Positions 39,946 to 51,372 of a stretch of DNA of 64,000 nucleotides are shown in pieces. This stretch comes from Vicinamibacteria bacterium. GTDB taxonomy: Bacteria > Acidobacteriota > Vicinamibacteria > Marinacidobacterales > Marinacidobacteraceae. The stretch is from contig OZ241322.1 of the NCBI GenBank assembly GCA_965199715.1, positions 1,504,001 through 1,568,000 of the forward strand, in the 5' to 3' direction. The position numbers and the translations under genes are program-made. Within the stretch, counting starts at the first letter, position 1; each line of letters starts with the position of its first letter. Under the pieces are notes generated by a model. That model saw nothing but the letters and a program-made list of their open reading frames with translations, made no database searches and was not told the DNA's origin.

Positions 39946-41139
39946 TTGCGGCGCGGCCTCCTCCTCGCGCTGCTCGTCGGCTGCGGGACAACCCCGCCGG
40001 ACACCGATGTCCTCGTCCTGACCGCGGACCTCGTGCTCGACGGCCGGGGCGCGGCGCTCACCGGCCACGGCGTGGCCGTCCGGGATGGCCGGATCGTCGC
40101 CGTAGCGCCGGTGGCCGAGCTTCCGTCCGGCGAGCGCCGCGACTTCCCCGGCGGGACGATCCTGCCGGGATTCATCGATACTCACGTCCACCTCGACTGG
40201 CATTTCGACGAGAGCGGCAAGCTGGCGCGGGGCGCTTCCGGCGACACGGCGGCGATGGCCGCCGTCGAGAACGGTCTCGCCATGCTGGACGCCGGGTTCA
40301 CCACCGTCCAGAGCCTCGGCAGCCCGGTGGACGGCCCGGTGCGCGACGCGATCCACCGCGGAACCGTGCCCGGCCCCCGAGTGCTGACCACGCTCGGCCA
40401 ACTCGGCGCGGGGACCGGCGGCCCCGACGAACTCGCGGCGGAAGTGCATCGGCTCGCCGACGCGGGAGCCGACGCGATCAAGATCTTCGCGTCCGAGAGC
40501 ATCCGGGTCGGCGGCGGCCCGACGCTCTCGCTGGAGCAACTGGAGGCGGCCTGCGGCGCGTCGAGCGAGCGCGGCCTGCGGACGCTGGTCCACGCCCACG
40601 GCCCCGAGAGCGCCGCCCGCGCCTCGAACGCCGGGTGCACCGCGATCGAGCACGGGGCGCTGCTCGACCAGGCGACGCTCGACCTGCTGGCGGCCAACGG
40701 GACGTACTACGACCCGAACACGTACCTCATCTTCGCGAACTATTTCGAGAACCGGGACCGCTACCTCGGGATCGGGAACTACACCGAGGAGGGATTCGCG
40801 GCGATGGAAGCGGGCGGCGTCCGCGCCATGGAGACCTTCCAAATGGCGCTTGAGACGGAGGGGCTCAAGATCGTCTTCGGAACCGATGCGGTCGCCGGAG
40901 CCCACGGCCAGAACATCCGGGAAGCCACGGCGCGGGTGCGCGACGGCGGGCAGGACCCGGCGGACGTGATCGTCGGGCTCACGTCGCTTGCGGCGGAGTC
41001 GCTCGGAATGGGCGACGAGATCGGGACGCTGGCTGCGGGCTACGCGGCGGACGTGGTGGTCGTGGACGGGAACCCGCTTGCGGAAGTCGAGGCGCTTGGG
41101 CGCGTGCTGCTGGTGATGCGAGACGGTAGGATCCGGTAA
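39946..41139 (+). CDS. Amidohydrolase family protein (lipoprotein)
   Basis: Lipobox LVGC; PGFIDTHVH, IKIFA, HAH, IEHG, FGTD, ADVVVVDGNP. Confidence 0.9.
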   Translation: MRRGLLLALLVGCGTTPPDTDVLVLTADLVLDGRGAALTGHGVAVRDGRIVAVAPVAELPSGERRDFPGGTILPGFIDTHVHLDWHFDESGKLARGASGDTAAMAAVENGLAMLDAGFTTVQSLGSPVDGPVRDAIHRGTVPGPRVLTTLGQLGAGTGGPDELAAEVHRLADAGADAIKIFASESIRVGGGPTLSLEQLEAACGASSERGLRTLVHAHGPESAARASNAGCTAIEHGALLDQATLDLLAANGTYYDPNTYLIFANYFENRDRYLGIGNYTEEGFAAMEAGGVRAMETFQMALETEGLKIVFGTDAVAGAHGQNIREATARVRDGGQDPADVIVGLTSLAAESLGMGDEIGTLAAGYAADVVVVDGNPLAEVEALGRVLLVMRDGRIR

Positions 41140-41146
41140 GCACAAC

Positions 41147-43689
41147 ATGGCACGGAGCTTGCGCCCGCCCGCCCGCCCGCCCGTTCTAGGTCTCGAGGCC
41201 GGAAATTAGAAAGCTACGTCCATGAAGGGGCGGAGCGCCTCAACGCCCCGCCGGTCGGACTTGTCACCGCGGATACCGATTTTGCGCCGGAGCGGAAACG
41301 CTGGGATCACGACCCGCATCTCGACCCCACGCTCCAGTGGGCGGGCAAGGTTGAAGGAACCTCATTCGAGATTCCAACCGTCTCGCTGCACGTGCACGAG
41401 CGGATAGACCCCCGGACGATCATCGAGGCGGTACGCCGCCAACCGGAACCGGCTCAACAGTCCCTGTTCCAGTCAAGCCTGCCGCTGCGGCAGGCGATTG
41501 ACTTCTACGGTCACCGGGACGACTGGAGCAATCGGCTGATCGCGGGCGACAGCCTGCTGGTCATGAACAGCCTCCTCGAGAAGGAGGGCATGGGCGGCAA
41601 GGTCCAGATGGTCTATGTGGACCCGCCGTATGGGATCAAGTACGGCTCCAACTTCCAGCCGTTCGTCAACAAGCGGGAAGTCACCGACAACGACCTGACC
41701 CGGGAGCCGGAGACGCTCAAGGCGTTCCGCGACACGTGGGAACTCGGCATCCACTCGTGGCTGACCTACCTCCGGGACCGCCTGCGCCTCGCCCGGGAAC
41801 TCCTCACCGAGTCCGGGAGCGTCTTCGTCCAGATCGGCGACGAGAACCTCGACCTCGTGCTCGGGCTCATGGGGGACGTGTTCGGACGTGAGAACCGCGT
41901 GGCCACGATCAGTTTTGTCAAGACCGGCGGCAGTTCCAGCAGCCGGTTACCCAAGGCCGCCGATTACCTCGCCTGGTTCGCCAAGAACATCAACAAGCTC
42001 AAGTACCGACAGATCTACGAGGAGTTGACTCGCGAGGAGACGGTTGAACTCTTCAGTTCCTACGCCATGGTGGAGAGGGATGGGCGCTCGCTCCCCCTGA
42101 CCAAGGAGGAGCGGCGAGAGCTGCCGACCGACGCTCGCATTTTCCGTCGGGAACGCCTCGTTTCGCCGGGCACTTCGACGACCGGGCGGTCCGCCCCCTA
42201 TCGATGGGACGGGGTCACCTACCCCTGTCCCGCGGGTCAGCAGTGGCGCGTATCGCCGGAAGGCATGAATCGGCTTGCGCAGCTCGGGCGGCTGACTTCG
42301 GTCGGAGCGGGTTCCGAGCTCTCGTGGAAACGGTACGAGAGCGAAGTTCCCGGGCGCCGCCTCCACAACATCTGGCCGGACCAGATGTCTGCCCCGGGCC
42401 CGCGTTACGTCGTCGAGACGTACACCAAGGTCATCCAGCGATGCCTGCTGATGACCACCGACCCCGGCGATCTCGCGCTCGACATCACCTGCGGTTCCGG
42501 TGTCACCGCCTTCGTCGCCGAGCAATGGGGCCGCCGCTGGATCACCTGCGACACGTCGCGGGTCGCGGTCACGCTCGCCCGCCAGCGGCTCATGGCCGCG
42601 CACTTCGACTATTACAAGCTGGCCCATCCGGACGAGGGCGTGGGTAGCGGCTTCGAGTACCACTCGGTCCCGAAGGTCTCCGCCGGCAGCCTCGCCTATG
42701 ACCGCAACGAGGTCACTACCCTCTACGACCGGCCTCACATCGACAGGAAGAAGGTCCGGGTCACCGGCCCCTTTACCGTCGAAGCCGTCCCGGCCCCGAC
42801 CGTTCGTTCGCTGGACGAGTCCGACCCGCAGCCCGCCGACGCCTCGGTGGGCCGCAGCGGCGCCACCGTGCGCGAGGCCGACTGGCGCGACGAGCTGTTG
42901 CGCACCGGCATTCGCGGACGCGGCGGCCACAAGCTGCGGTTCTCCCGGCTGGAGCCGCTGGGAGCGCGGTGGCTCCACGCCGATGGCGAGACGCTCGCCG
43001 AGGACGAGCCGGCCCAGATGGCCGCCGAACCGGCGGCGTCCTTCGATTCCGAGCGGGTCGTCGTCTCCTTCGGCCCCGACCACGCGCCGCTGGACAGGAC
43101 CCAGGTCGAACTCGCCCGCGAGGAGGCCCTGAAGCTCGTCCCCCGTCCGAAGATCATCGTCTTCTGCGCCTTCCAGTTCGATCCCGAGGCCGCGAAGGAC
43201 ATCGACGAGACCCGCTGGGCCGGCGTGACGCTGCTCAAGGCGCAGATGAACGCGGATCTCCTGACCGAGGACCTGAAGCGCAAGCGCGCCGGCAACGAGA
43301 GCTTCTGGCTGGTCGGCCAGCCCGACGCGGACGTGGAGGAGCTTGACGACGGCGAGGTCCGGGTGACCGTCCGGGGCTTCGATTACTTCGATGTCCGCTC
43401 CGGCGAGTTGGATTCGGGCGGCCCCGATCGAATCGCGATCTGGATGCTCGACCCCGACTACGACGGGCGCAGCCTCTTCCCCTGGCAGGCGTTCTTTCCG
43501 CAGGCCGACGCGAAGGGCGGTTGGGCGCGGCTCGCGAAGTCGCTCAACGCCGAGATCGACCCCGACCGAATCGAGGCGTACCGGGGCACGGTCTCGCTTC
43601 CGTTCAAACCCGGCAAGCACCGCCGGGCGGCGGTCAAGATCGTGGACGACCGCGGGATCGAGAGCCTGAAGCTGCTGGACCTGCCGTGA
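41147..43689 (+). CDS. mod: Type III R-M methyltransferase (Mod); frameshifted at a (GCCC)5 tract near the 5' end
   Basis: DPPY and DITCGSG motifs. Mod-like N-terminal sequence (ESYVHE...NAPPVGLVT...DPHLDPTLQWAGK) is in the main frame upstream of the first in-frame GTG (41392). ATG 41147 is out of frame and stops at 41207-41209. Confidence 0.85.
41163..41182 (+). repeat. Simple sequence repeat (GCCC)5
   Basis: Perfect gccc x5 starting 16 nt after the A of ATG 41147. Confidence 0.95.
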
Positions 43690-46364
43690 CCCGCAAGCGG
43701 GCGATCGACGAACTCATCATCGCCTCGGCGTGGAGCGCCCCGACCGAGCACTGGCGGTACGACCGCGACGAGCGGACGTTCGAGCGCAACGCCGGGCGCC
43801 GTCCGGCGGGCTACCACGTGGCAGCCGAGACCGACGATCCCCACGATCCGGGAAGGTTCGTCGAGCTTCCGCTCGTGAACGCGATCCGCAAGCGCGTGGC
43901 CGACTGGCGCGACGCCGGCTGGCCGGGAACCACCGGGACCACCCGGCGGCTGCTGGAGCACTGGCGCCGTCCCGAGCGCGATCCGCGTCTTTTCTTCTGT
44001 CAGCTCGAGGCCGCCGAAACCCTGATCTGGCACGCCGAGGCCCCCGAGACCGCCCGCACCGGCATCCACGTCCCCGGCGACGGCGGGCCGTTTCCGCGCC
44101 TGTGCTCCAAGATGGCCACCGGCACCGGCAAGACCGTGGTGATGGCCATGGCGATCGCCTGGCACGTCCTGAACCGGATCGCCTCGCCGAGGGACCCGCG
44201 CTTCTCCCGCAACGTGCTCGTCATGGCCCCGGGCCTGACGGTGCGCGATCGGCTTCGGGTGCTCGATCCGTCCGCTTCCGGCAACTACTACGCGGAGTTC
44301 GACCTGGTGCCGTCGGCGCTGCGCGAGCGGCTCCGGCGCGGCCGGGTGGTCGTGCGTAACTGGCACTCGCTGGACGTGAAACCCAAGCAGGCGAAGAGCG
44401 TGGACAAGCGCGGCCCGAAGAGCGACGCGGCGTGGGTGCGGGACGTTCTCGGAGAGATGGCGCGGGAGAAGCGCATCCTCGTCGTCAACGACGAGGCGCA
44501 CCACGCCTGGCGGCTCCCCGAGGGCGCGAAGGCGAAAAAGACGCTCGTGGACCAGACGAAGTGGATCGGCGCGCTGGACCGCCTGCACCGCGTCCGGGGC
44601 GTGCTCGGCTGCCTCGACTTCTCGGCGACTCCCTTCACGCCGGCGCTCTCGAACCGCAGCGAGGCGCTCTTCGCCTGGACGGTCAGCGACTTCGGCCTCA
44701 ACGACGCCATCGAGTCCGGCCTCGTCAAGACGCCGCGGGTCGTCGTCAAGGACGACGCCTCGACCGACCGCTCGCGCCTCTTCCACATCTACAAGGACGA
44801 CGAGGTCAAGGAGGACCTGAACCGGAGGTCGCAGCCGGGAGACCCGCTCCCGGACCTGGTGCTGAACGCCTACGACCTGCTCGGCCACGACTGGGACCGC
44901 ACGCGGCGCAAGTGGGAGGAGCTCGGGCACGCGACCCGGCCGGTGCTCATCACGGTCGCGAACCGCACTGAGACGGCGGCTCGCATCAAGCGCGCCTTCG
45001 ATGCCGGCAAGGTCCGGATCGCCGCGCTCAAGGACCCGGGCCGGACGCTCCACATCGACTCGAAGGTGCTCGAGGCCGCCGAGAAAGTGGAGGGCGTCCG
45101 CTCCGGGAACGCCAACCAGAAGGAGCGCGCCGAGAAGCTGCGCCGGCAGGTGGACACCGTCGGCAAGCCGGGCGCGCCCGGCGAGCGCATCCAGAACGTG
45201 ATCTCGGTGGACATGCTCTCCGAGGGCTGGGACGCACGGACGGTGACCCACATCATGGGCCTGCGGGCGTTCACGAGCCAGCTTCTCTGCGAGCAGGCGG
45301 TCGGGCGGGGGCTGCGGCGGATCTCGTGGGACGTGGACAAGGAGACGAGACGGTTCGCCCCGGAGTACGTGAACGTCTTCGGGATCCCGTTTCCGTTCCT
45401 GCCGCACGAGGAGGACGGTCCCGAGCCGCCGCCGCCAAAGCCGAGGCGCATGGTGGCGACGGTTCCGGGCCGGGAGCGCTTTCGAATCGCGTGGCCGAAC
45501 GTCGTCCGGGTCGCGCCTTCCTATCGACCCCTGCTGTCGCTCGGCGACTTCGAGCCGCTGGAGCTCGACGCGGCGAAGACGGCGCGGGCCGCCGAACTGG
45601 CGGAGATCGTGGACGGCGTTCCCGACGAAGAGCGGCTCAGCCGGATCGAACTCGCGCCGGAGCCACGTTTTCAGCAGGTTCTGTTCGAGGCCGCCGCCGA
45701 CGTGTACGCACGGATCCAGCCCGACTGGCGAGGGGAGCGGGGGGAGCTACTCGCTCAGGTCGCGCGGCTCGTCGAGCAGGCGCTTCGGCCGGACCGCATC
45801 CGGGTGGTCCCGGACCGCGGCGCCCGGTGGCGGAGGCTCGTCGTCACGTTCAACATGACGCGGATCGTCCAGCACCTCTGGCAGGCGATTCGCTTCGAGA
45901 GCGTGGAGCGGTTCGAGCTGGTGCTGGACCCCGACGAGCCGATGCGCTCGACCGGCGACATGGCGGCCTGGCACACGAGCCGGCCCTGCCACGAGTCGAA
46001 GCGGAGCCACGTCAACCTCTCCGTGTGCGACAGCGGCTGGGAGCGAACGGTGGCGGAGGCGCTCGATCGCAGCCCGGTCGTCGGGGCGTGGGTCACGAAC
46101 GACCACCTCGGGTTCGATATCGGATACATCCACAAGGGGGTGATGCGCAAGTACGTCCCCGACTTCCTGATCCGGTTGACGAACGGGCGACGTCTCGTGC
46201 TCGAAGTCAAGGGCGTGGACAGCCCGAAGGACCGGACCAAGCGCGAGTTCCTCGACGAGTGGGTCAAGGGGGTCAACGCCGACGGGCGGTTCGGCGAGTG
46301 GGCGTGGGACGTGCTGTTCGACCCGGACGAGATCGACGGGTTGCTGGCGCGGGCCGCCGCGTAG
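43686..46364 (+). CDS. res: Type III restriction enzyme Res subunit (DEAD/H helicase + PD-(D/E)xK nuclease)
   Basis: FFCQLEA, KMATGTGKT, NDEAHH, SATP, MLSEGWD, QAVGRGLRR, YVPDF...LEVKG; coupled to mod (GTGA). Confidence 0.92.
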   Translation: MTRKRAIDELIIASAWSAPTEHWRYDRDERTFERNAGRRPAGYHVAAETDDPHDPGRFVELPLVNAIRKRVADWRDAGWPGTTGTTRRLLEHWRRPERDPRLFFCQLEAAETLIWHAEAPETARTGIHVPGDGGPFPRLCSKMATGTGKTVVMAMAIAWHVLNRIASPRDPRFSRNVLVMAPGLTVRDRLRVLDPSASGNYYAEFDLVPSALRERLRRGRVVVRNWHSLDVKPKQAKSVDKRGPKSDAAWVRDVLGEMAREKRILVVNDEAHHAWRLPEGAKAKKTLVDQTKWIGALDRLHRVRGVLGCLDFSATPFTPALSNRSEALFAWTVSDFGLNDAIESGLVKTPRVVVKDDASTDRSRLFHIYKDDEVKEDLNRRSQPGDPLPDLVLNAYDLLGHDWDRTRRKWEELGHATRPVLITVANRTETAARIKRAFDAGKVRIAALKDPGRTLHIDSKVLEAAEKVEGVRSGNANQKERAEKLRRQVDTVGKPGAPGERIQNVISVDMLSEGWDARTVTHIMGLRAFTSQLLCEQAVGRGLRRISWDVDKETRRFAPEYVNVFGIPFPFLPHEEDGPEPPPPKPRRMVATVPGRERFRIAWPNVVRVAPSYRPLLSLGDFEPLELDAAKTARAAELAEIVDGVPDEERLSRIELAPEPRFQQVLFEAAADVYARIQPDWRGERGELLAQVARLVEQALRPDRIRVVPDRGARWRRLVVTFNMTRIVQHLWQAIRFESVERFELVLDPDEPMRSTGDMAAWHTSRPCHESKRSHVNLSVCDSGWERTVAEALDRSPVVGAWVTNDHLGFDIGYIHKGVMRKYVPDFLIRLTNGRRLVLEVKGVDSPKDRTKREFLDEWVKGVNADGRFGEWAWDVLFDPDEIDGLLARAAA

Positions 46365-46369
46365 TCAGG

Positions 46370-46510
46370 CGGCCTTCGCCGACGATCACGACCCGCTGCC
46401 ACAGCGTGACCAACGGGCGCTTCGGGCACCCGGACCCCGAGCAGGTCCGCCGGATCTCGATGCGGGAGGCCGCCCGGCTGCGTTCCGCGACGACTACGTG
46501 TTCCATCCGG
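46370..46510 (+). pseudogene. Relic of the C-terminal part of a C5 DNA methyltransferase
   Basis: RPSPTITTRCHSVTNGRFGHPDPEQVRRISMREAARL, then after a frameshift DDYVFHP; no start and no catalytic motifs. Confidence 0.75.
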
Positions 46511-46679
46511 TGCGTCCGTGAACTCCGCCACGTAAGGGCGCGGCTGGTTGTCGCCCAACCACGCGGGCTCCAGGCGGGGAGACGTTTCGCAGGCGCGAGG
46601 TGGGAGTTGTCGCTACCGAGGGTCAGGATTCGTCAGTGCTCCCCGGACGGTCCGCGCGTGCTGGGCAGTCCACTGGCCC

Positions 46680-49600
46680 CTACTCCTCCTCCGGGTCGGG
46701 AGGACGCGCGCGGTCCATCCGGATCGACGTTCCGCCGAAGAACGCGCTCGACGTGCGCTTGACCTCATGCTCGCCGTCCAGCAGGTACTGCAGGATCGCC
46801 TGGTCCCACGCGAGTCCCGCCGATGCGACCGTCACCATCCAGTCGCCGCGCGCCGGTTCGTCGGGGGCTTCGGTGCCGCCTGACCAGATCGTGATCTTCG
46901 GGTCGTACCCGCCGAAGCCGCCGCCGTCGCCCGGCTGGGCGCGCTGACCCTTGATCGGCATCTGGATGTTCACGCCGTTGTGGAGGTCCATCCGGAACAC
47001 GTCGGGATCGAGGTCCATGCCGTAGCGCCGGTATCGGTCGTAGTTGCGCTCGTTCATGGCCCGGACGATGTCCGTGTCCTGGATCGCGTTCGTGATGTAG
47101 CGCCGGATCTTGAGGTGCTCCTCCTTGTGGCGGGGCAGCTCGGGATCGTCCACGAACATGAATCCGGGCATGAACCAGCCCTTGTTCATGCCCCAGTTGC
47201 GCTCGGTGCGGCGCCCGGCGCGGACGAGGCCGCTGAACTCGCTGAAGAGCTGCACGAGCTGGTGCGCCGGATACCCGTGCGGGTTCAGGAACACGTCCGG
47301 CAGCCACATCCGCCAGAGCCGGGGCCGCACCCCGGCCTCGGGGTACAGCGGCATCGGATCGCCCGCTCCCGACGTGGAGTCGATCCCGAGCGAGCCCCAG
47401 TACCCGGCGTGGAGGATGTGCTCCGGATTCACCTGATGCATGTCCCACGCGAGCCGCGCGCCGTCGGGGTTCTGGACCGGATGCACGATCACGTTCACCC
47501 GATCCAGCTTCTTCCGCTCCTCGGGGTCGGTCAGCAGCAGTTCCGCAAGCCGCAGTACGTGCGACGTCGAGGAGACCTCGTTCGCGTGCTGGCGGGCGCT
47601 GTACAGGATGGTCGGCTTCAGCAGGCTCGCCTTCCGCCGGGACCAGTGGCTCGCCTCCATCGGCGGCATGAGATCCATCGCCCAGACCGGCTTGCCGAGG
47701 TAGCTCTCGCCGATCCGATACACGGTCGCCTCGGGGTAGTCGGCCATCCGGGCGAGGATCCCGAGCGCCTCCGTCGGCGCGATCGGCGTATCCCATTGGA
47801 CGAGGCGCTCGTCGTCGCCGGTCTCGCCCCGAAACGCCGTGACGTCCGGCGGGGGCGGCGCCTGCCCGTTCGCGGCCAGCGTCGCCGTCCGCTCGTCGCC
47901 GGGCTCCCACGTCCACGAGGCCGCGAGCTCCAGTTCGCCGAGGCCGGCGAAGGCCAGTTCGTCAGCGTAGAGGCCCGCCGCGCGCAGCTCGCCCAGCAGC
48001 TCCAGCGTCCGCGTCGCCTGCGCCGCCGAGAGGATGCGCTCGTCGGCGCGGTCCTCGCCGTGGCGGGCGACGTAGTACGCCCGCTCGTCGGCGTCGGTGT
48101 CCACCTTCACCGCGAGTCGAAGCGCGGCCACGCCCGCCTCGCCGGCGCGGACCCGGGCGGCGACCGCCGACGGGCGCTCCACCTCGACGTTCGGGAGGTT
48201 GCGCCGCACCGATCCGGCGCGCCCGTCCTCCGTCACGTAATCCACGACGATCGCGGGGCGGCCGGTGCGGAACCCGGTGAGCCGGATCTTCGCGGTTCCG
48301 GGCGTGCCGTCGGTCTTCGGATGCATCCACGGGAGGACCCGGCCCGACCACGTCAGCTCGGTCCCGAGCGAGTTGCGCCCGATGTGCCGCATCAGGCTGT
48401 GGGTGACGAAGTAGATGTCCTCGTGAAGCGCGTCGTGGGTGGACTCGATCTCGCGCTCGACCCCGAGCAGTCGTTCGGGTTCCGACAGCGACAGGTCCAC
48501 CCGCAGTTCCCCGAAGAAGGGAGCGTCCACCGGCCCGCGGGGCTTGCCCTGGTGGACCTCCATGACGTGGTCGTAAAGACGCGCCAGCGTGTCCGACTGG
48601 AAGTGGTCCCAGAACGCCTCGGCGTCGGTGCGGATGCGCTCGTCCACGATCTCGCGCCCGTCGATCTCGGCGCGGAGGCTCCCGGTCGTCACTTGGACCA
48701 GCTCGTAATCGGGATAGCGGTCGAAGAACGGCCGGGTCACGAGGCGCGGCTCGAAGGTCTCGTTCAACAACACCTCCCCGTCGGCCCCCTCGGCCACGAC
48801 CTGGTACGCCGGCGCGTCCGGCTCGGTGCGCATCTCGTAGCCCACGTCGTCGAGACCCAGCCCGAGCGCCTCGACCAGGATCTCGTCCGCGGGGAACATC
48901 GCGTGCTGCCAGCGCAGCGGCGTGTGCATCGCCTGCTGCGGCCACTCCGGCGGCGGCCGGTGCTCCCGGAACAGGAGCCGCACCCGCGCCGGGCGAAGCT
49001 CGATCAGCCGCGGCAGCAGCGCCTCCTCGATCCAGCCGTAGCCCTGCCGGAACGCCGACAGGACCACGACGTCGGCCTCGCCGCCGCGCGCCTCGATCTC
49101 GCCGCGAAGCTCGTCGCGAAGCCGCTCCCGCACCTCGCGCGGCTCGCTCAGGATCGCCTCGACCCGAACCGGGTCGCCCGGCCCGACCTCGGGCAGCACC
49201 CGCTCCTCGACGAGCGCCCGGAAAGCGTCCACCTCGAAGGGAACCGAGAACTCCTCCTCGTGGAGAATCCGCGCCCGCTCCACGTTCCGGTCGTCCAGCT
49301 CCACGGTCGCGGCCCCGAGGCCGAGCCGCTCGGCCGCCGCCCGAAGGAAGTCGTCCAGCCCCGGAGCCGGATCCTTCACCGACACGAGGATGCGCGACTC
49401 CCGGACGCCGAGGTGGGCGATTTCGGCGGCGATCCGCTCCAGCTTGTAGGCGGCGGTCGCCGCCTGGCCGCCCGGCGTCCGCGCCGAGAGGAACTTCCAC
49501 GCCGCGAACTCGACCGCGTCCGCCGTGGGATGGTCCGTCCCCCGGTTCGCCTCGTCGAGGTGCGGGAACGCGACCGCGGTCTGCCGCAGCGCCCGCGCCA

Positions 49601-50594
49601 GCCCGTCCCGGTCGCCCCCGGTCACGACCAGCGTCGGCTTGTCGTCGCGAGAAGCGACGCCGACCCAGCCCTCGCCCGGCCCGAGAGCCGGTACGTCGAG
49701 GTCCGCGAGCAGCGGGTTCCCTTCCGCCGTTCCCACGACGACCGCGGCGCCTTCGGGTTCCTCAGCCGAGACCGGAAACGTCAGGCCCGCGGACTCGAGC
49801 CCCAGCCGGGTCGCGAGCGCGAGGACTCCTTCCGGATCCTCGGCGGAGACCGAGAGCTGCGCGTCCAGCCGGTCGGGGATGCGGTCGCCGTTCGAGTCGC
49901 CGAGCAGCCCGTCCGGCTGGTAGAGAACCGACAGGTCGAGGTCGTCCTTCGACCCGGTCCCCGGGCGCGCCGGGATCGGCCCCGGCTCGGGCGCCGGCGG
50001 ATCGTGGGCGAACTCGGCGCGGGAGTCGCCGGCGGTGACGACGAGCGTCCGCAAGCCGTCGAAGCGGAGCTCGTCGGGAATCGCGTCGGCTGCGACCTCG
50101 GCCAGCGCGAGCGCGTCGGCCCCGGCCTCCACCTCGACGCGAATCACCCGCGCGCCGTCCCCGACCGCCGCCTCCACGTCGGCGAGCGAATCCCCTTCGA
50201 CCCCGAAGACGTGCGGCGCCCGGGCGGCGAGCCAGTGCGCCGCGGCGGCGAGACCCGCGGCGTCGCCCCCGGTCACCCGCACGCCGTCGTCGAGCGAGAC
50301 CTCCCCGCGCCCGGCGGGCAGGTCGCCGAGACCGACGCGGATCAAGACCTCGGCGGTCTCGGGAAGCGGCAGGTCCGCCGCGAGCGTCTCGAACCCGAGC
50401 CGGGCCGCGATCTCGGCGCCGGCGGCGACCTCGGCGGCGCTCGCCCCGTCGGCCAGAACCACGCGGGCGCGCAGCCGGTCGGGGACGCCGTCGCCGTTTT
50501 CGTCCGCGACGGCGGCCTCATAGAGGGTCGCGAGCGAGTCCGGTTGGGCCAGCGCGGCCCCCGGCGTCAGCAGAAGGACGAGAACGAGACGCAT
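46680..50594 (-). CDS. Large exported M14 zinc carboxypeptidase-domain protein
   Basis: Signal peptide; C-terminal SARQHANE, NPDG, NPHG motifs. Confidence 0.82.
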   Translation of the reverse strand: MRLVLVLLLTPGAALAQPDSLATLYEAAVADENGDGVPDRLRARVVLADGASAAEVAAGAEIAARLGFETLAADLPLPETAEVLIRVGLGDLPAGRGEVSLDDGVRVTGGDAAGLAAAAHWLAARAPHVFGVEGDSLADVEAAVGDGARVIRVEVEAGADALALAEVAADAIPDELRFDGLRTLVVTAGDSRAEFAHDPPAPEPGPIPARPGTGSKDDLDLSVLYQPDGLLGDSNGDRIPDRLDAQLSVSAEDPEGVLALATRLGLESAGLTFPVSAEEPEGAAVVVGTAEGNPLLADLDVPALGPGEGWVGVASRDDKPTLVVTGGDRDGLARALRQTAVAFPHLDEANRGTDHPTADAVEFAAWKFLSARTPGGQAATAAYKLERIAAEIAHLGVRESRILVSVKDPAPGLDDFLRAAAERLGLGAATVELDDRNVERARILHEEEFSVPFEVDAFRALVEERVLPEVGPGDPVRVEAILSEPREVRERLRDELRGEIEARGGEADVVVLSAFRQGYGWIEEALLPRLIELRPARVRLLFREHRPPPEWPQQAMHTPLRWQHAMFPADEILVEALGLGLDDVGYEMRTEPDAPAYQVVAEGADGEVLLNETFEPRLVTRPFFDRYPDYELVQVTTGSLRAEIDGREIVDERIRTDAEAFWDHFQSDTLARLYDHVMEVHQGKPRGPVDAPFFGELRVDLSLSEPERLLGVEREIESTHDALHEDIYFVTHSLMRHIGRNSLGTELTWSGRVLPWMHPKTDGTPGTAKIRLTGFRTGRPAIVVDYVTEDGRAGSVRRNLPNVEVERPSAVAARVRAGEAGVAALRLAVKVDTDADERAYYVARHGEDRADERILSAAQATRTLELLGELRAAGLYADELAFAGLGELELAASWTWEPGDERTATLAANGQAPPPPDVTAFRGETGDDERLVQWDTPIAPTEALGILARMADYPEATVYRIGESYLGKPVWAMDLMPPMEASHWSRRKASLLKPTILYSARQHANEVSSTSHVLRLAELLLTDPEERKKLDRVNVIVHPVQNPDGARLAWDMHQVNPEHILHAGYWGSLGIDSTSGAGDPMPLYPEAGVRPRLWRMWLPDVFLNPHGYPAHQLVQLFSEFSGLVRAGRRTERNWGMNKGWFMPGFMFVDDPELPRHKEEHLKIRRYITNAIQDTDIVRAMNERNYDRYRRYGMDLDPDVFRMDLHNGVNIQMPIKGQRAQPGDGGGFGGYDPKITIWSGGTEAPDEPARGDWMVTVASAGLAWDQAILQYLLDGEHEVKRTSSAFFGGTSIRMDRARPPDPEEE

Positions 50595-50604
50595 GAACCG
50601 GATT

Positions 50605-51372
50605 CTATGGATCGAGCGGGCCCTCCACAGCGACGCGAGTTCCGCGGACGTCCGCGCGGACTTCGTGCACCTCGGCGAGGCGCTCCCGGGTGAGCGTCTC
50701 CCCGGGCGATCCGTCGGCGACGAGCCGGCCCTCGCGCATCCACAGCAGGCGGTCGGCGTAGCGGGCGGCGAGATCCAGATCATGCAGCACGGCGAGCGCC
50801 CCGCCGCCCGCGTCCACGAAGCGGCGCAGCAGCCGCATCACCCGGTGCTGGTGGAGCGGGTCCAGCGCCGCGACCGGCTCGTCGGCCAGAAGCAGCGGCG
50901 TTCCCGCGGCGAAGGCGCGGGCCACGTGCATGCGGGCGGTCTCGCCGCCCGACAGCGTGTCCGCGGCGCGGTCGGCGAGGCCCTCGAGGTCCGCGTCCCG
51001 CAGCGCTCGCTCGGTCGCGGCGCGGTCCTCGGGTCCGAGCCGGGCCGGGGAGCCGCCGAACGCGAACCGCCCGAGCGCCACCACGTCCCGGACGCGGTTG
51101 GGCCACGCGAGCGGGCGCTGCTGCGGCAGGTAGGCCACGCGGCGGGCGCGCTCCTCCGGGCGGAAGCGGAAGACGTCGCGCCCGTCCAGCCGCGCCGTTC
51201 CGGCGGCCGGGCGGATCATCCCGAGCGCGGCCCGCAGCAGCGTCGTCTTGCCCGCGCCGTTCGGGCCGACCAGCGCGGCGAGTTCGCCGGCGCCGAGGTC
51301 GAGCCCGACCCCGTCGAGGATGGTCCGCCCGCCGGCCCGGACGCGGAGGTTCCGGACCGAGAGCAACCTCAC
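50605..51372 (-). CDS. ABC transporter ATP-binding protein (FepC/BtuD-like)
   Basis: GPNGAGKTT, AYLPQ, LSGGE, LADEPVAALD, LHDLDLA. Confidence 0.9.
   Translation of the reverse strand: MRLLSVRNLRVRAGGRTILDGVGLDLGAGELAALVGPNGAGKTTLLRAALGMIRPAAGTARLDGRDVFRFRPEERARRVAYLPQQRPLAWPNRVRDVVALGRFAFGGSPARLGPEDRAATERALRDADLEGLADRAADTLSGGETARMHVARAFAAGTPLLLADEPVAALDPLHQHRVMRLLRRFVDAGGGALAVLHDLDLAARYADRLLWMREGRLVADGSPGETLTRERLAEVHEVRADVRGTRVAVEGPLDP

Follow-up and report, generated by a model that had tools for sequence, protein, structure and literature searches.

A tetranucleotide tract at the start of a Type III-like mod gene in a sponge-associated acidobacterium as a candidate frame switch, assembled in its OFF state

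We analyzed a window of 64,000 nucleotides (nt) from a Vicinamibacteria bacterium (Acidobacteriota; assembly GCA_965199715.1, contig OZ241322.1, positions 1,504,001 to 1,568,000) that contains a Type III-like restriction-modification (R-M) cassette, in which a methyltransferase gene (mod) is followed by a restriction gene (res). We hold, with moderate confidence, that five GCCC units early in mod act on this system as a frame switch driven by slippage and that the assembly caught the switch in the OFF state. In the proposed mechanism, a horizontally acquired cassette (mod from 41147, res at 43686-46364) would carry a slippage-prone tetranucleotide tract, in which slipped-strand mispairing during replication would add or remove GCCC units. 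With three, six or nine units, the ATG at 41147 would stand in frame and give a full-length Mod of ~845 aa. With four, five (as assembled), seven or eight units, translation would leave the Mod frame, and at five it would stop after 20 codons, such that a Mod with the conserved N-terminus could not be made. Type III Res proteins require Mod for target recognition. Because Res needs Mod, and because the start of res overlaps the stop of mod, the OFF state would silence both methylation and restriction without self-killing.

The frame break can be read directly from the DNA. From ATG 41147-41149, the reading MARSLRPPARPPVLGLEAGN ends after 20 codons at TAG 41207-41209, a dead-end OFF frame (41147..41209, plus strand) that opens at the conserved mod start ("MAR...") and crosses five perfect GCCC units at 41163-41182, i.e., codons 6-12 of mod. 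Tandem Repeats Finder delimits this proposed slippage switch as 41162..41183 (plus strand; 22 nt with period 4, 5.5 copies, 100% matches), the sole period-4 entry among 68 in the window. The Mod frame, on the other hand, is open from 41140, directly after the TAA (41137-41139) of an upstream amidohydrolase gene, to TGA 43687-43689, and its earliest ATG, GTG or TTG is GTG 41392. Yet the start-less stretch of this frame at 41200..41391 (plus strand) encodes KLESYVHEGAERLNAPPVGLVT...DPHLDPTLQWAGK, and also KLESYVHEGAERLNAPPVGLVT...PTVSLHVHERIDPR ahead of GTG 41392, which the reading frame and homologue alignment identify as the conserved Mod N-terminus (IExYxH..ERxNxPPVGLVT..DPHLDP..WAGK..PTVSLHV). 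ATG 41147 lies in phase 2 and Mod in phase 1, and a gain of 4 nt (six units) or a loss of 8 nt (three units) joins the two; the six-unit reading is MARSLRPPARPPARSRSRGRKLESY, with a basic MAR... tail of a length typical for the family. As in phase-variable mod genes, the number of units thus decides whether the conserved start shares the frame of the enzyme, three or six units being ON and five OFF. The interval that must hold the break spans 41150-41206 (~57 nt), and the tract sits inside it. An earlier note on this DNA had described the OFF reading across five perfect units, the Mod-like sequence lacking a start before GTG 41392, and the restoration of a single frame by six or three units; all of these held, on the sequence and Tandem Repeats Finder for the first and by frame arithmetic for the last. 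Two other routes to a product were set aside: a non-canonical start in the Mod frame, for which only ACG, ATT and CTG codons are present (by eye) and each would still truncate conserved sequence, and reinitiation after TAG 41207, ruled out by the absence of a start codon before 41392.

The related genes indicate where this Mod family starts. In alignment, ATG 41147 with its neighbouring sequence, ACATGGCAC, corresponds to the start of the nearest homologue (locus L022, described below), and family homologues begin MA(K/R).... In 114 of 120 listed homologous proteins, a set that includes the window's own called protein, the PPVGLV motif follows a short basic "MA(K/R)..." tail and lies 15-45 residues from the N-terminus; in three the N-terminal extension is longer, and three lack the region (the window's 765-aa call, P0011 and P0088). 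We further examined the DNA of related loci, 79 on genome contigs and 80 on metagenome contigs, for which 139 5′ ends were visible: an ATG is found 15-50 codons upstream of the PPVGLV codons in 136 of these, A8-A9 runs from lysine codons occur at 13, and a tetranucleotide repeat of at least three units near the start occurs at one, namely L022. At L025, which has no nearby ATG, a repeat was looked for and none was seen. The homologue alignment that the earlier note had proposed as a check on the N-terminus therefore places the conserved segment upstream of GTG 41392 in the start region of the family (114 of 120). GTG 41392 encodes the conserved Val of SLHVHERIDP, an internal position and not the family start, and the 765-aa open reading frame that gene callers report from it (P0003; 41392..43689, plus strand), as assessed by start scan and homologue alignment, is probably not a real product. 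Across the alignment of 120 sequences, the protein read from the whole Mod frame (P0001) matches 29 of 32 N-terminal columns and 329 of 350 body columns with at least 95% conservation, so that the unstarted N-terminal segment is no more decayed than the body (3/32 vs 21/350 conserved columns deviate). Repeats are also present elsewhere in this set of loci: C12 at 5708-5719 of L016 and C10 at 751-760 of both L079 and L150, all inside intact mods; (AGTGGAC)3 inside two related mods (L058 4288-4308 and L123 1788-1808); and C17 at 3612-3628 of L040 and C11 at 3448-3458 of L025, a few hundred nt upstream of mods.

The closest relative of the window's mod that was found, at 72% identity, comes from another Vicinamibacteria metagenome-assembled genome (MAG), at locus L022. 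Its 5′ end reads ATG GCA CAG GAT TTG C(CCGA)5 CAA CAG TAG, i.e., a stop 15 codons in, and Mod continues in another frame as PTDRPTDNSSPRKGRRGRAVEPYTH...; four or seven CCGA units would restore the frame. The accompanying res is intact (1049 bits), its start and the mod stop sharing the letters ATGA, and across the 7.4 Mb L022 genome CCGA repeats of at least four units are found at the mod start only. When the two genes were aligned with MAFFT, their start codons coincided and their tracts fell in register after a 2-nt gap, with units that differ by one base (CGCC vs CGAC). The public protein of L022 (P0011) is an N-truncated call, and another protein, P0017, is 82% identical to the L022 Mod, with near-identical ends and a divergent central target recognition domain (TRD). 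P0017 and P0123, which start MARDLRTD... and MPRDLRTD..., are full length and do not carry an expanded tract. A five-unit tract is thus present at the same site in two of the four known subclade members (the window and L022), both out of frame and otherwise intact. The comparison of the tract across related genomes, as the earlier note had advised, hence returned the same arrangement in the nearest homologue (five units, a broken frame and an intact res), and this likeness between aligned genes strengthens the switch reading.

We next consider how unusual such a tract is in its own genome (G000; two contigs, 2,656,567 bases, 71.5% guanine plus cytosine (GC)). Period-4 tracts number 63 at ≥12 nt, 10 at ≥14 nt and one at ≥16 nt; this single long tract is the 22-nt mod tract, and it falls exactly where the mod frame break must lie. 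Among 60 simulated order-3 Markov genomes, one reached 20 nt and none reached 22 nt, and the tract is more than chance. Short period-4 tracts are in fact depleted in the real genome, since the simulated genomes average 183 tracts of ≥12 nt vs the 63 observed. The longest repeat tract of any kind in the genome is (GGGCTC)10, a perfect 60-nt hexanucleotide repeat at C1:937736-937795, which preserves the reading frame.

Both genes downstream of the tract look sound. The mod open frame (41140..43689, plus strand; 849 codons, P0001) was classified as a Type III-like N6-adenine methyltransferase (MTase) from Pfam, PADLOC and PDB matches. It contains motif IV (VDPPYG) and motif I (CGSG) and no internal stops. 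The Pfam N6_N4_Mtase match (PF01555) spans residues 155-480, much longer than the 221 positions of the profile, and a large insert, which we read as an inserted TRD, is therefore predicted; the PADLOC MTase_III model (PDLC03632) gives 454.7 bits, and the closest proteins of solved structure are 6k0w Mod and 4zcf EcoP15I Mod. Mod thus has the Type III layout, in which a beta-class N6-adenine MTase places DPPY ahead of motif I and the TRD between the two. For the res gene (43686..46364, plus strand), NCBIfam NF046055 ("BPTD_3080 family restriction endonuclease") matches at 966.8 bits (cut-off 800) over model positions 2-968 of 970, Pfam ResIII matches residues 161-332 of the 947-aa frame (E 1.7e-7), and a weak TnsA-like nuclease match covers residues 835-910. 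The PADLOC Type III restriction endonuclease models score weakly against Res (29.4 and 25.1 bits), and a sequence-based search for a solved structural relative found none. We call the pair Type III-like because Mod has the Type III features in full and Res only in part; with this qualification, the identification of a Type III mod and an intact res in the earlier note was borne out. Neither gene carries a further lesion, across 849 codons in mod and 892 codons in res, and the GTG start of res (43686) and the mod stop share the letters GTGA, an overlap that implies that res is translationally coupled to mod.

To look for variation in tract length, we compared window positions 40400-42400 with four of 12 listed sequencing runs (X1, X8, X10 and X11). 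A 2072-nt contig from X8 matches 40472-42400 (1929 nt) with no differences, five units included; because this contig is independent, the five-unit state is real and not an assembler artefact. In X1, a sponge metagenome, contigs are fragmented at the locus, and a near-identical one begins only at 41175, within the tract; a strain with ~5% divergence has 339 letters in place of the 349 at 41133-41481, and neither X1 observation gives a unit count. Judged from these lengths, strains differ at the 5′ end of mod. Closer strains were sought in several collections. None was found among 40 relatives of the window's genome (best 69% nt identity, at another locus) or in the contig collections, where identity reached at most 72% among the 79 genome-contig loci and 67% among the 80 metagenome-contig loci. 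Seven of 40 relatives of the L022 genome match at E ≤ 1e-20 (8 of 41 with G041 itself), with the 5′ end covered by none, and a protein search with the L022 Mod returned nothing closer than 82%.

The same genome holds further R-M genes with repeat tracts. PF01555 matches eight places in it, and three R-M genes are out of frame at their tracts, namely the (GCCC)5 mod, a G12 mod and a C10 MmeI-like gene. The G12 mod belongs to a paralogous Type III-like system outside the window (C1:1098722-1104245, with res at C1:1098722-1101643 and mod at C1:1101427-1104245, the latter being L011 1928-4745). Its res is an intact BPTD_3080-family gene (571.5 bits on NF046055), and its mod is split into two frames exactly at G12 (C1:1102503-1102514), which G11 or G14 would join. 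The product is 41% identical to the window's Mod in its N-half and 30% in its C-half, and a search for this gene in 40 relatives gave two weak partial matches. The MmeI-like Type IIG restriction-methylase gene (C1:2253500-2256260; L015 1-2762) has a 907-codon frame for its N, helicase-spacer, MTase and TRD domains, and the MmeI_C domain (98.3 bits) follows in another frame directly after C10 (L015 2461-2470; C1:2255960-2255969), with C11 or C8 joining the two. Unlike the length of the tetranucleotide tract, those of G12 and C10 could have been miscounted in long-read assembly. Among G/C runs of 8-9 nt, five are flanked on either side by a single coding frame, and none of these five causes a frame switch; judged by eye, one of them, C9 at 887073, may be part of a tRNA arm. 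Two longer runs, C14 and C12, were rejected as switches, both being intergenic; C14 (C1:412569-412582) lies between a convergent TPR gene and a VWA-domain gene, and the G7 run that comes after it might base-pair with it. A C15 run at C1:1697352-1697366 shows a weak coding signal and no family match.

Beyond the frame break itself, we infer that the tract still changes length at a useful rate, that ON cells exist and that switching is selected. What tips the balance toward a maintained switch is that the L022 tract is in register, that neither genome shows a second lesion in mod or res, and that the genome's rare long tracts concentrate in R-M genes. By the published criterion, under which a repeat within the ORF or promoter counts as phase-variable from three units on for units of at least 3 nt (Atack et al. 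2018, PMC5909438), (GCCC)5 is long enough. The selective benefit could lie in bet-hedging of defence and uptake or in methylome heterogeneity. With res intact and translationally coupled, a defence system that turns ON and OFF is no less likely than a dedicated phasevarion, in which methylation would control the expression of a set of genes.

Several observations weigh against a maintained switch. Five units are few, and the rate quoted for three units in the same extracts is ~0.5-2 × 10^-6 (PMC5909438), so that switching would be slow. Length variants were not seen: X8 has the same five units, and raw reads over the tract number 0 in X10 and ~2-3 in X11 (0-3x depth). The protein database holds the same truncated call on two contigs, and a full-length allele closer than 70% is absent from it. 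Both tract-bearing mods, in the window and in L022, are OFF, which also fits simple inactivation. Within the window's genome, a third N6_N4 MTase gene is interrupted by an element resembling the insertion sequence IS5 (C1:1635586-1638421, minus strand; L187 3586-6421), which has three genome copies at 99.7-100% identity. Ten family loci were picked for a short open frame or an over-long match (L024, L027, L044, L094, L017, L040, L074, L056, L067 and L063), and nine are interrupted by insertions, frameshifts or stops; the tenth, L063, is open over 972 codons, while L017, counted as interrupted, keeps a 1006-codon open frame across extra DNA, and the junction lies at a repeat (an A7 run) only in L040. 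Ordinary decay of Mod-family genes is thus not rare. Finally, P0001 deviates at 24 of 382 conserved columns vs a control mean of ~5 (control means 0.7 and 4.2 deviations; body maxima 11 and, in one case, 27), an excess that could reflect relaxed constraint or only an outlying lineage.

These observations are the substance of the strongest competing account, one-way inactivation, in which slippage broke a recently acquired mod and the OFF allele became effectively fixed. The cassette would then be a young R-M pseudogene in the course of being lost from a small symbiont genome, and the tract would be the mutational cause of its loss and not a maintained switch. The single five-unit allele seen (in the window, the X8 contig and the truncated call on two contigs), the short tract, the disrupted MTase, the interrupted family loci, the deviating columns of P0001 and the fact that all three R-M genes with simple sequence repeats (SSRs) are out of frame would all fit, and it is the short tract together with the missing variants that keeps this account alive. 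It leaves unexplained, however, why L022 has an in-register five-unit tract with a one-base-different unit when such tracts are otherwise absent from both genomes. Moreover, mod and res are free of further lesions with catalytic motifs intact, and the N-terminal stretch has decayed no more than the body. We therefore treat one-way inactivation as a serious but doubtful explanation.

An assembly or sequencing error, under which the true tract has six or three units and the gene is simply ON, is highly improbable. The genome is a two-contig assembly of an uncultured organism, in which repeats can be miscalled, and G12 and C10 are of the kind that long reads miscount. Nevertheless, this possibility, which the earlier note had named as one that would overturn its proposal, is countered by the independently built X8 contig and by the truncated protein on record from two contigs; a 20-nt tetranucleotide repeat is also an atypical error site, the five G/C runs of 8-9 nt show no frame switch, and the unrelated L022 assembly has the same kind of break. 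It is equally hard to credit that the gene is expressed as it stands, through a truncated active Mod from GTG 41392 or a ribosomal frameshift on the GC-rich tract: gene callers do report the 765-aa frame and the catalytic domain (Pfam residues 155-480) lies downstream of that codon, but the codon falls within a stretch of 32 columns at least 95% conserved and has no purine-rich ribosome-binding site ahead of it (by eye), a shared programmed frameshift is unlikely because the ribosome would have to shift by -1 in the window and by +1 in L022, and to our knowledge the tract does not resemble any known frameshift signal.

Comparison with three related genomes (G001, G002 and the same-genus G003) delimits an inserted island of ~5.5 kb with lower GC (41140..46680, plus strand) between the upstream amidohydrolase gene (39946-41139, plus strand) and a convergent M14-peptidase-domain gene downstream (46680-50783, minus strand). 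These flanking genes are ~120 nt apart in G003 and ~2 kb apart in G001 and G002, and GC is 64-70% within the cassette vs 72-77% in the flanks. By gene order and composition, the mod-res pair is an insertion that appears horizontally acquired. The mod ATG lies only 7 nt past the amidohydrolase stop, so mod probably relies on read-through transcription or on a promoter inside the amidohydrolase gene; a promoter and terminator scan of 40500-47000 was uninformative, with no promoter-like sites and one terminator-like site, inside res and below the shuffle mean. As for habitat, sponge-metagenome runs contain 33-56% of the sampled words of the locus, and runs of two coded organisms 64-100%. Many of the homologous loci derive from MAGs, whose source taxa we take to be typical of sponges.

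The earlier note had contrasted this high-GC lineage with the pathogens in which such switches are known. This holds for taxonomy (Acidobacteriota, 71.5% GC) but has to be qualified for lifestyle: the genome is small and its DNA occurs in sponge-metagenome runs, which is the kind of host-associated setting in which contingency loci are to be expected. R-M genes are reported to be enriched in the sponge microbiome (PMC5649159, PMC5099237). Judged by titles, the literature on sponges and phase variation or phasevarions yielded no report of phase-variable R-M in sponge symbionts, and none was found on BPTD_3080. Across the family, repeat tracts seem, from the loci compared, to have arisen repeatedly. 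More tentatively, an uncultured, small-genome, sponge-associated acidobacterium may run several independent R-M switches ((GCCC)5, G12 and C10). Its tetranucleotide tract would be long-lived, since a sister gene, 28% different in protein sequence, has one in the same register. Contingency loci, with mixed defence and methylome states, would then be part of the life of non-pathogenic symbionts in dense, phage-rich host tissue and no speciality of pathogens. If the switch is real, repeat-switched Type III mods extend to Acidobacteriota and the sponge microbiome, and the symbiont population is a mix of restricting and non-restricting cells, which would bear on phage resistance, gene flow between symbionts and the reading of metagenome methylation data. 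Gene callers give truncated 765-aa and 802-aa "methyltransferases" at the window and L022 loci, and so hide the switch.

That repeats switch Type III methylases of host-adapted pathogens ON and OFF is well documented. A REBASE survey reported repeats in 662 of 3805 (17.4%) Type III mod genes, some of them in environmental species and opportunists, as inferred from sequence, and up to four repeat-bearing mod genes are possible in one genome (Atack et al. 2018, PMC5909438). Since that survey already covers repeat-bearing Type III mods, the window's case is of a known kind; it is new in its lineage and habitat, in its Mod/Res subfamily and in that a sister gene has a parallel tract. Like EcoP15I and EcoPI, the cassette has the gene order mod then res, a beta-class N6-adenine Mod with DPPY before the S-adenosylmethionine-binding motif and the TRD in between, and a Res with a ResIII helicase-like domain and a C-terminal nuclease-like region. 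Unlike them, its Res is weak on the PADLOC Type III models and has no solved relative, and its Mod has, in addition, a conserved segment of ~85 aa at the N-terminus and a long C-terminal part. In Helicobacter pylori and Campylobacter, R-M genes carry poly-G/C contingency tracts; the G12 and C10 tracts of the window's genome resemble these in that each stands at the exact point of frame change, and differ in that their lengths could be long-read miscounts. Characterised modA tracts are usually longer than five units, whereas the window's tract has only five. The host also differs from those of modA-type mods, being an uncultured, 71.5% GC, sponge-associated member of the Acidobacteriota; Mod and Res form a distinct subfamily (BPTD_3080-family Res; Mod matches EcoP15I Mod only at E 1e-11), and the intact and coupled res appears closer to a working defence system than to an orphaned regulator. 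The likeness to modA-type mods (PMC5909438) lies in a tetranucleotide repeat within the 5′ coding region whose unit number sets the frame, in several SSR-bearing methylase genes in one small, host-associated genome, in unit sequences that vary between related genes (AGCC vs AGTC there), and in the conserved ends and variable central TRD of P0017 and P0011, which recall modA allele structure.

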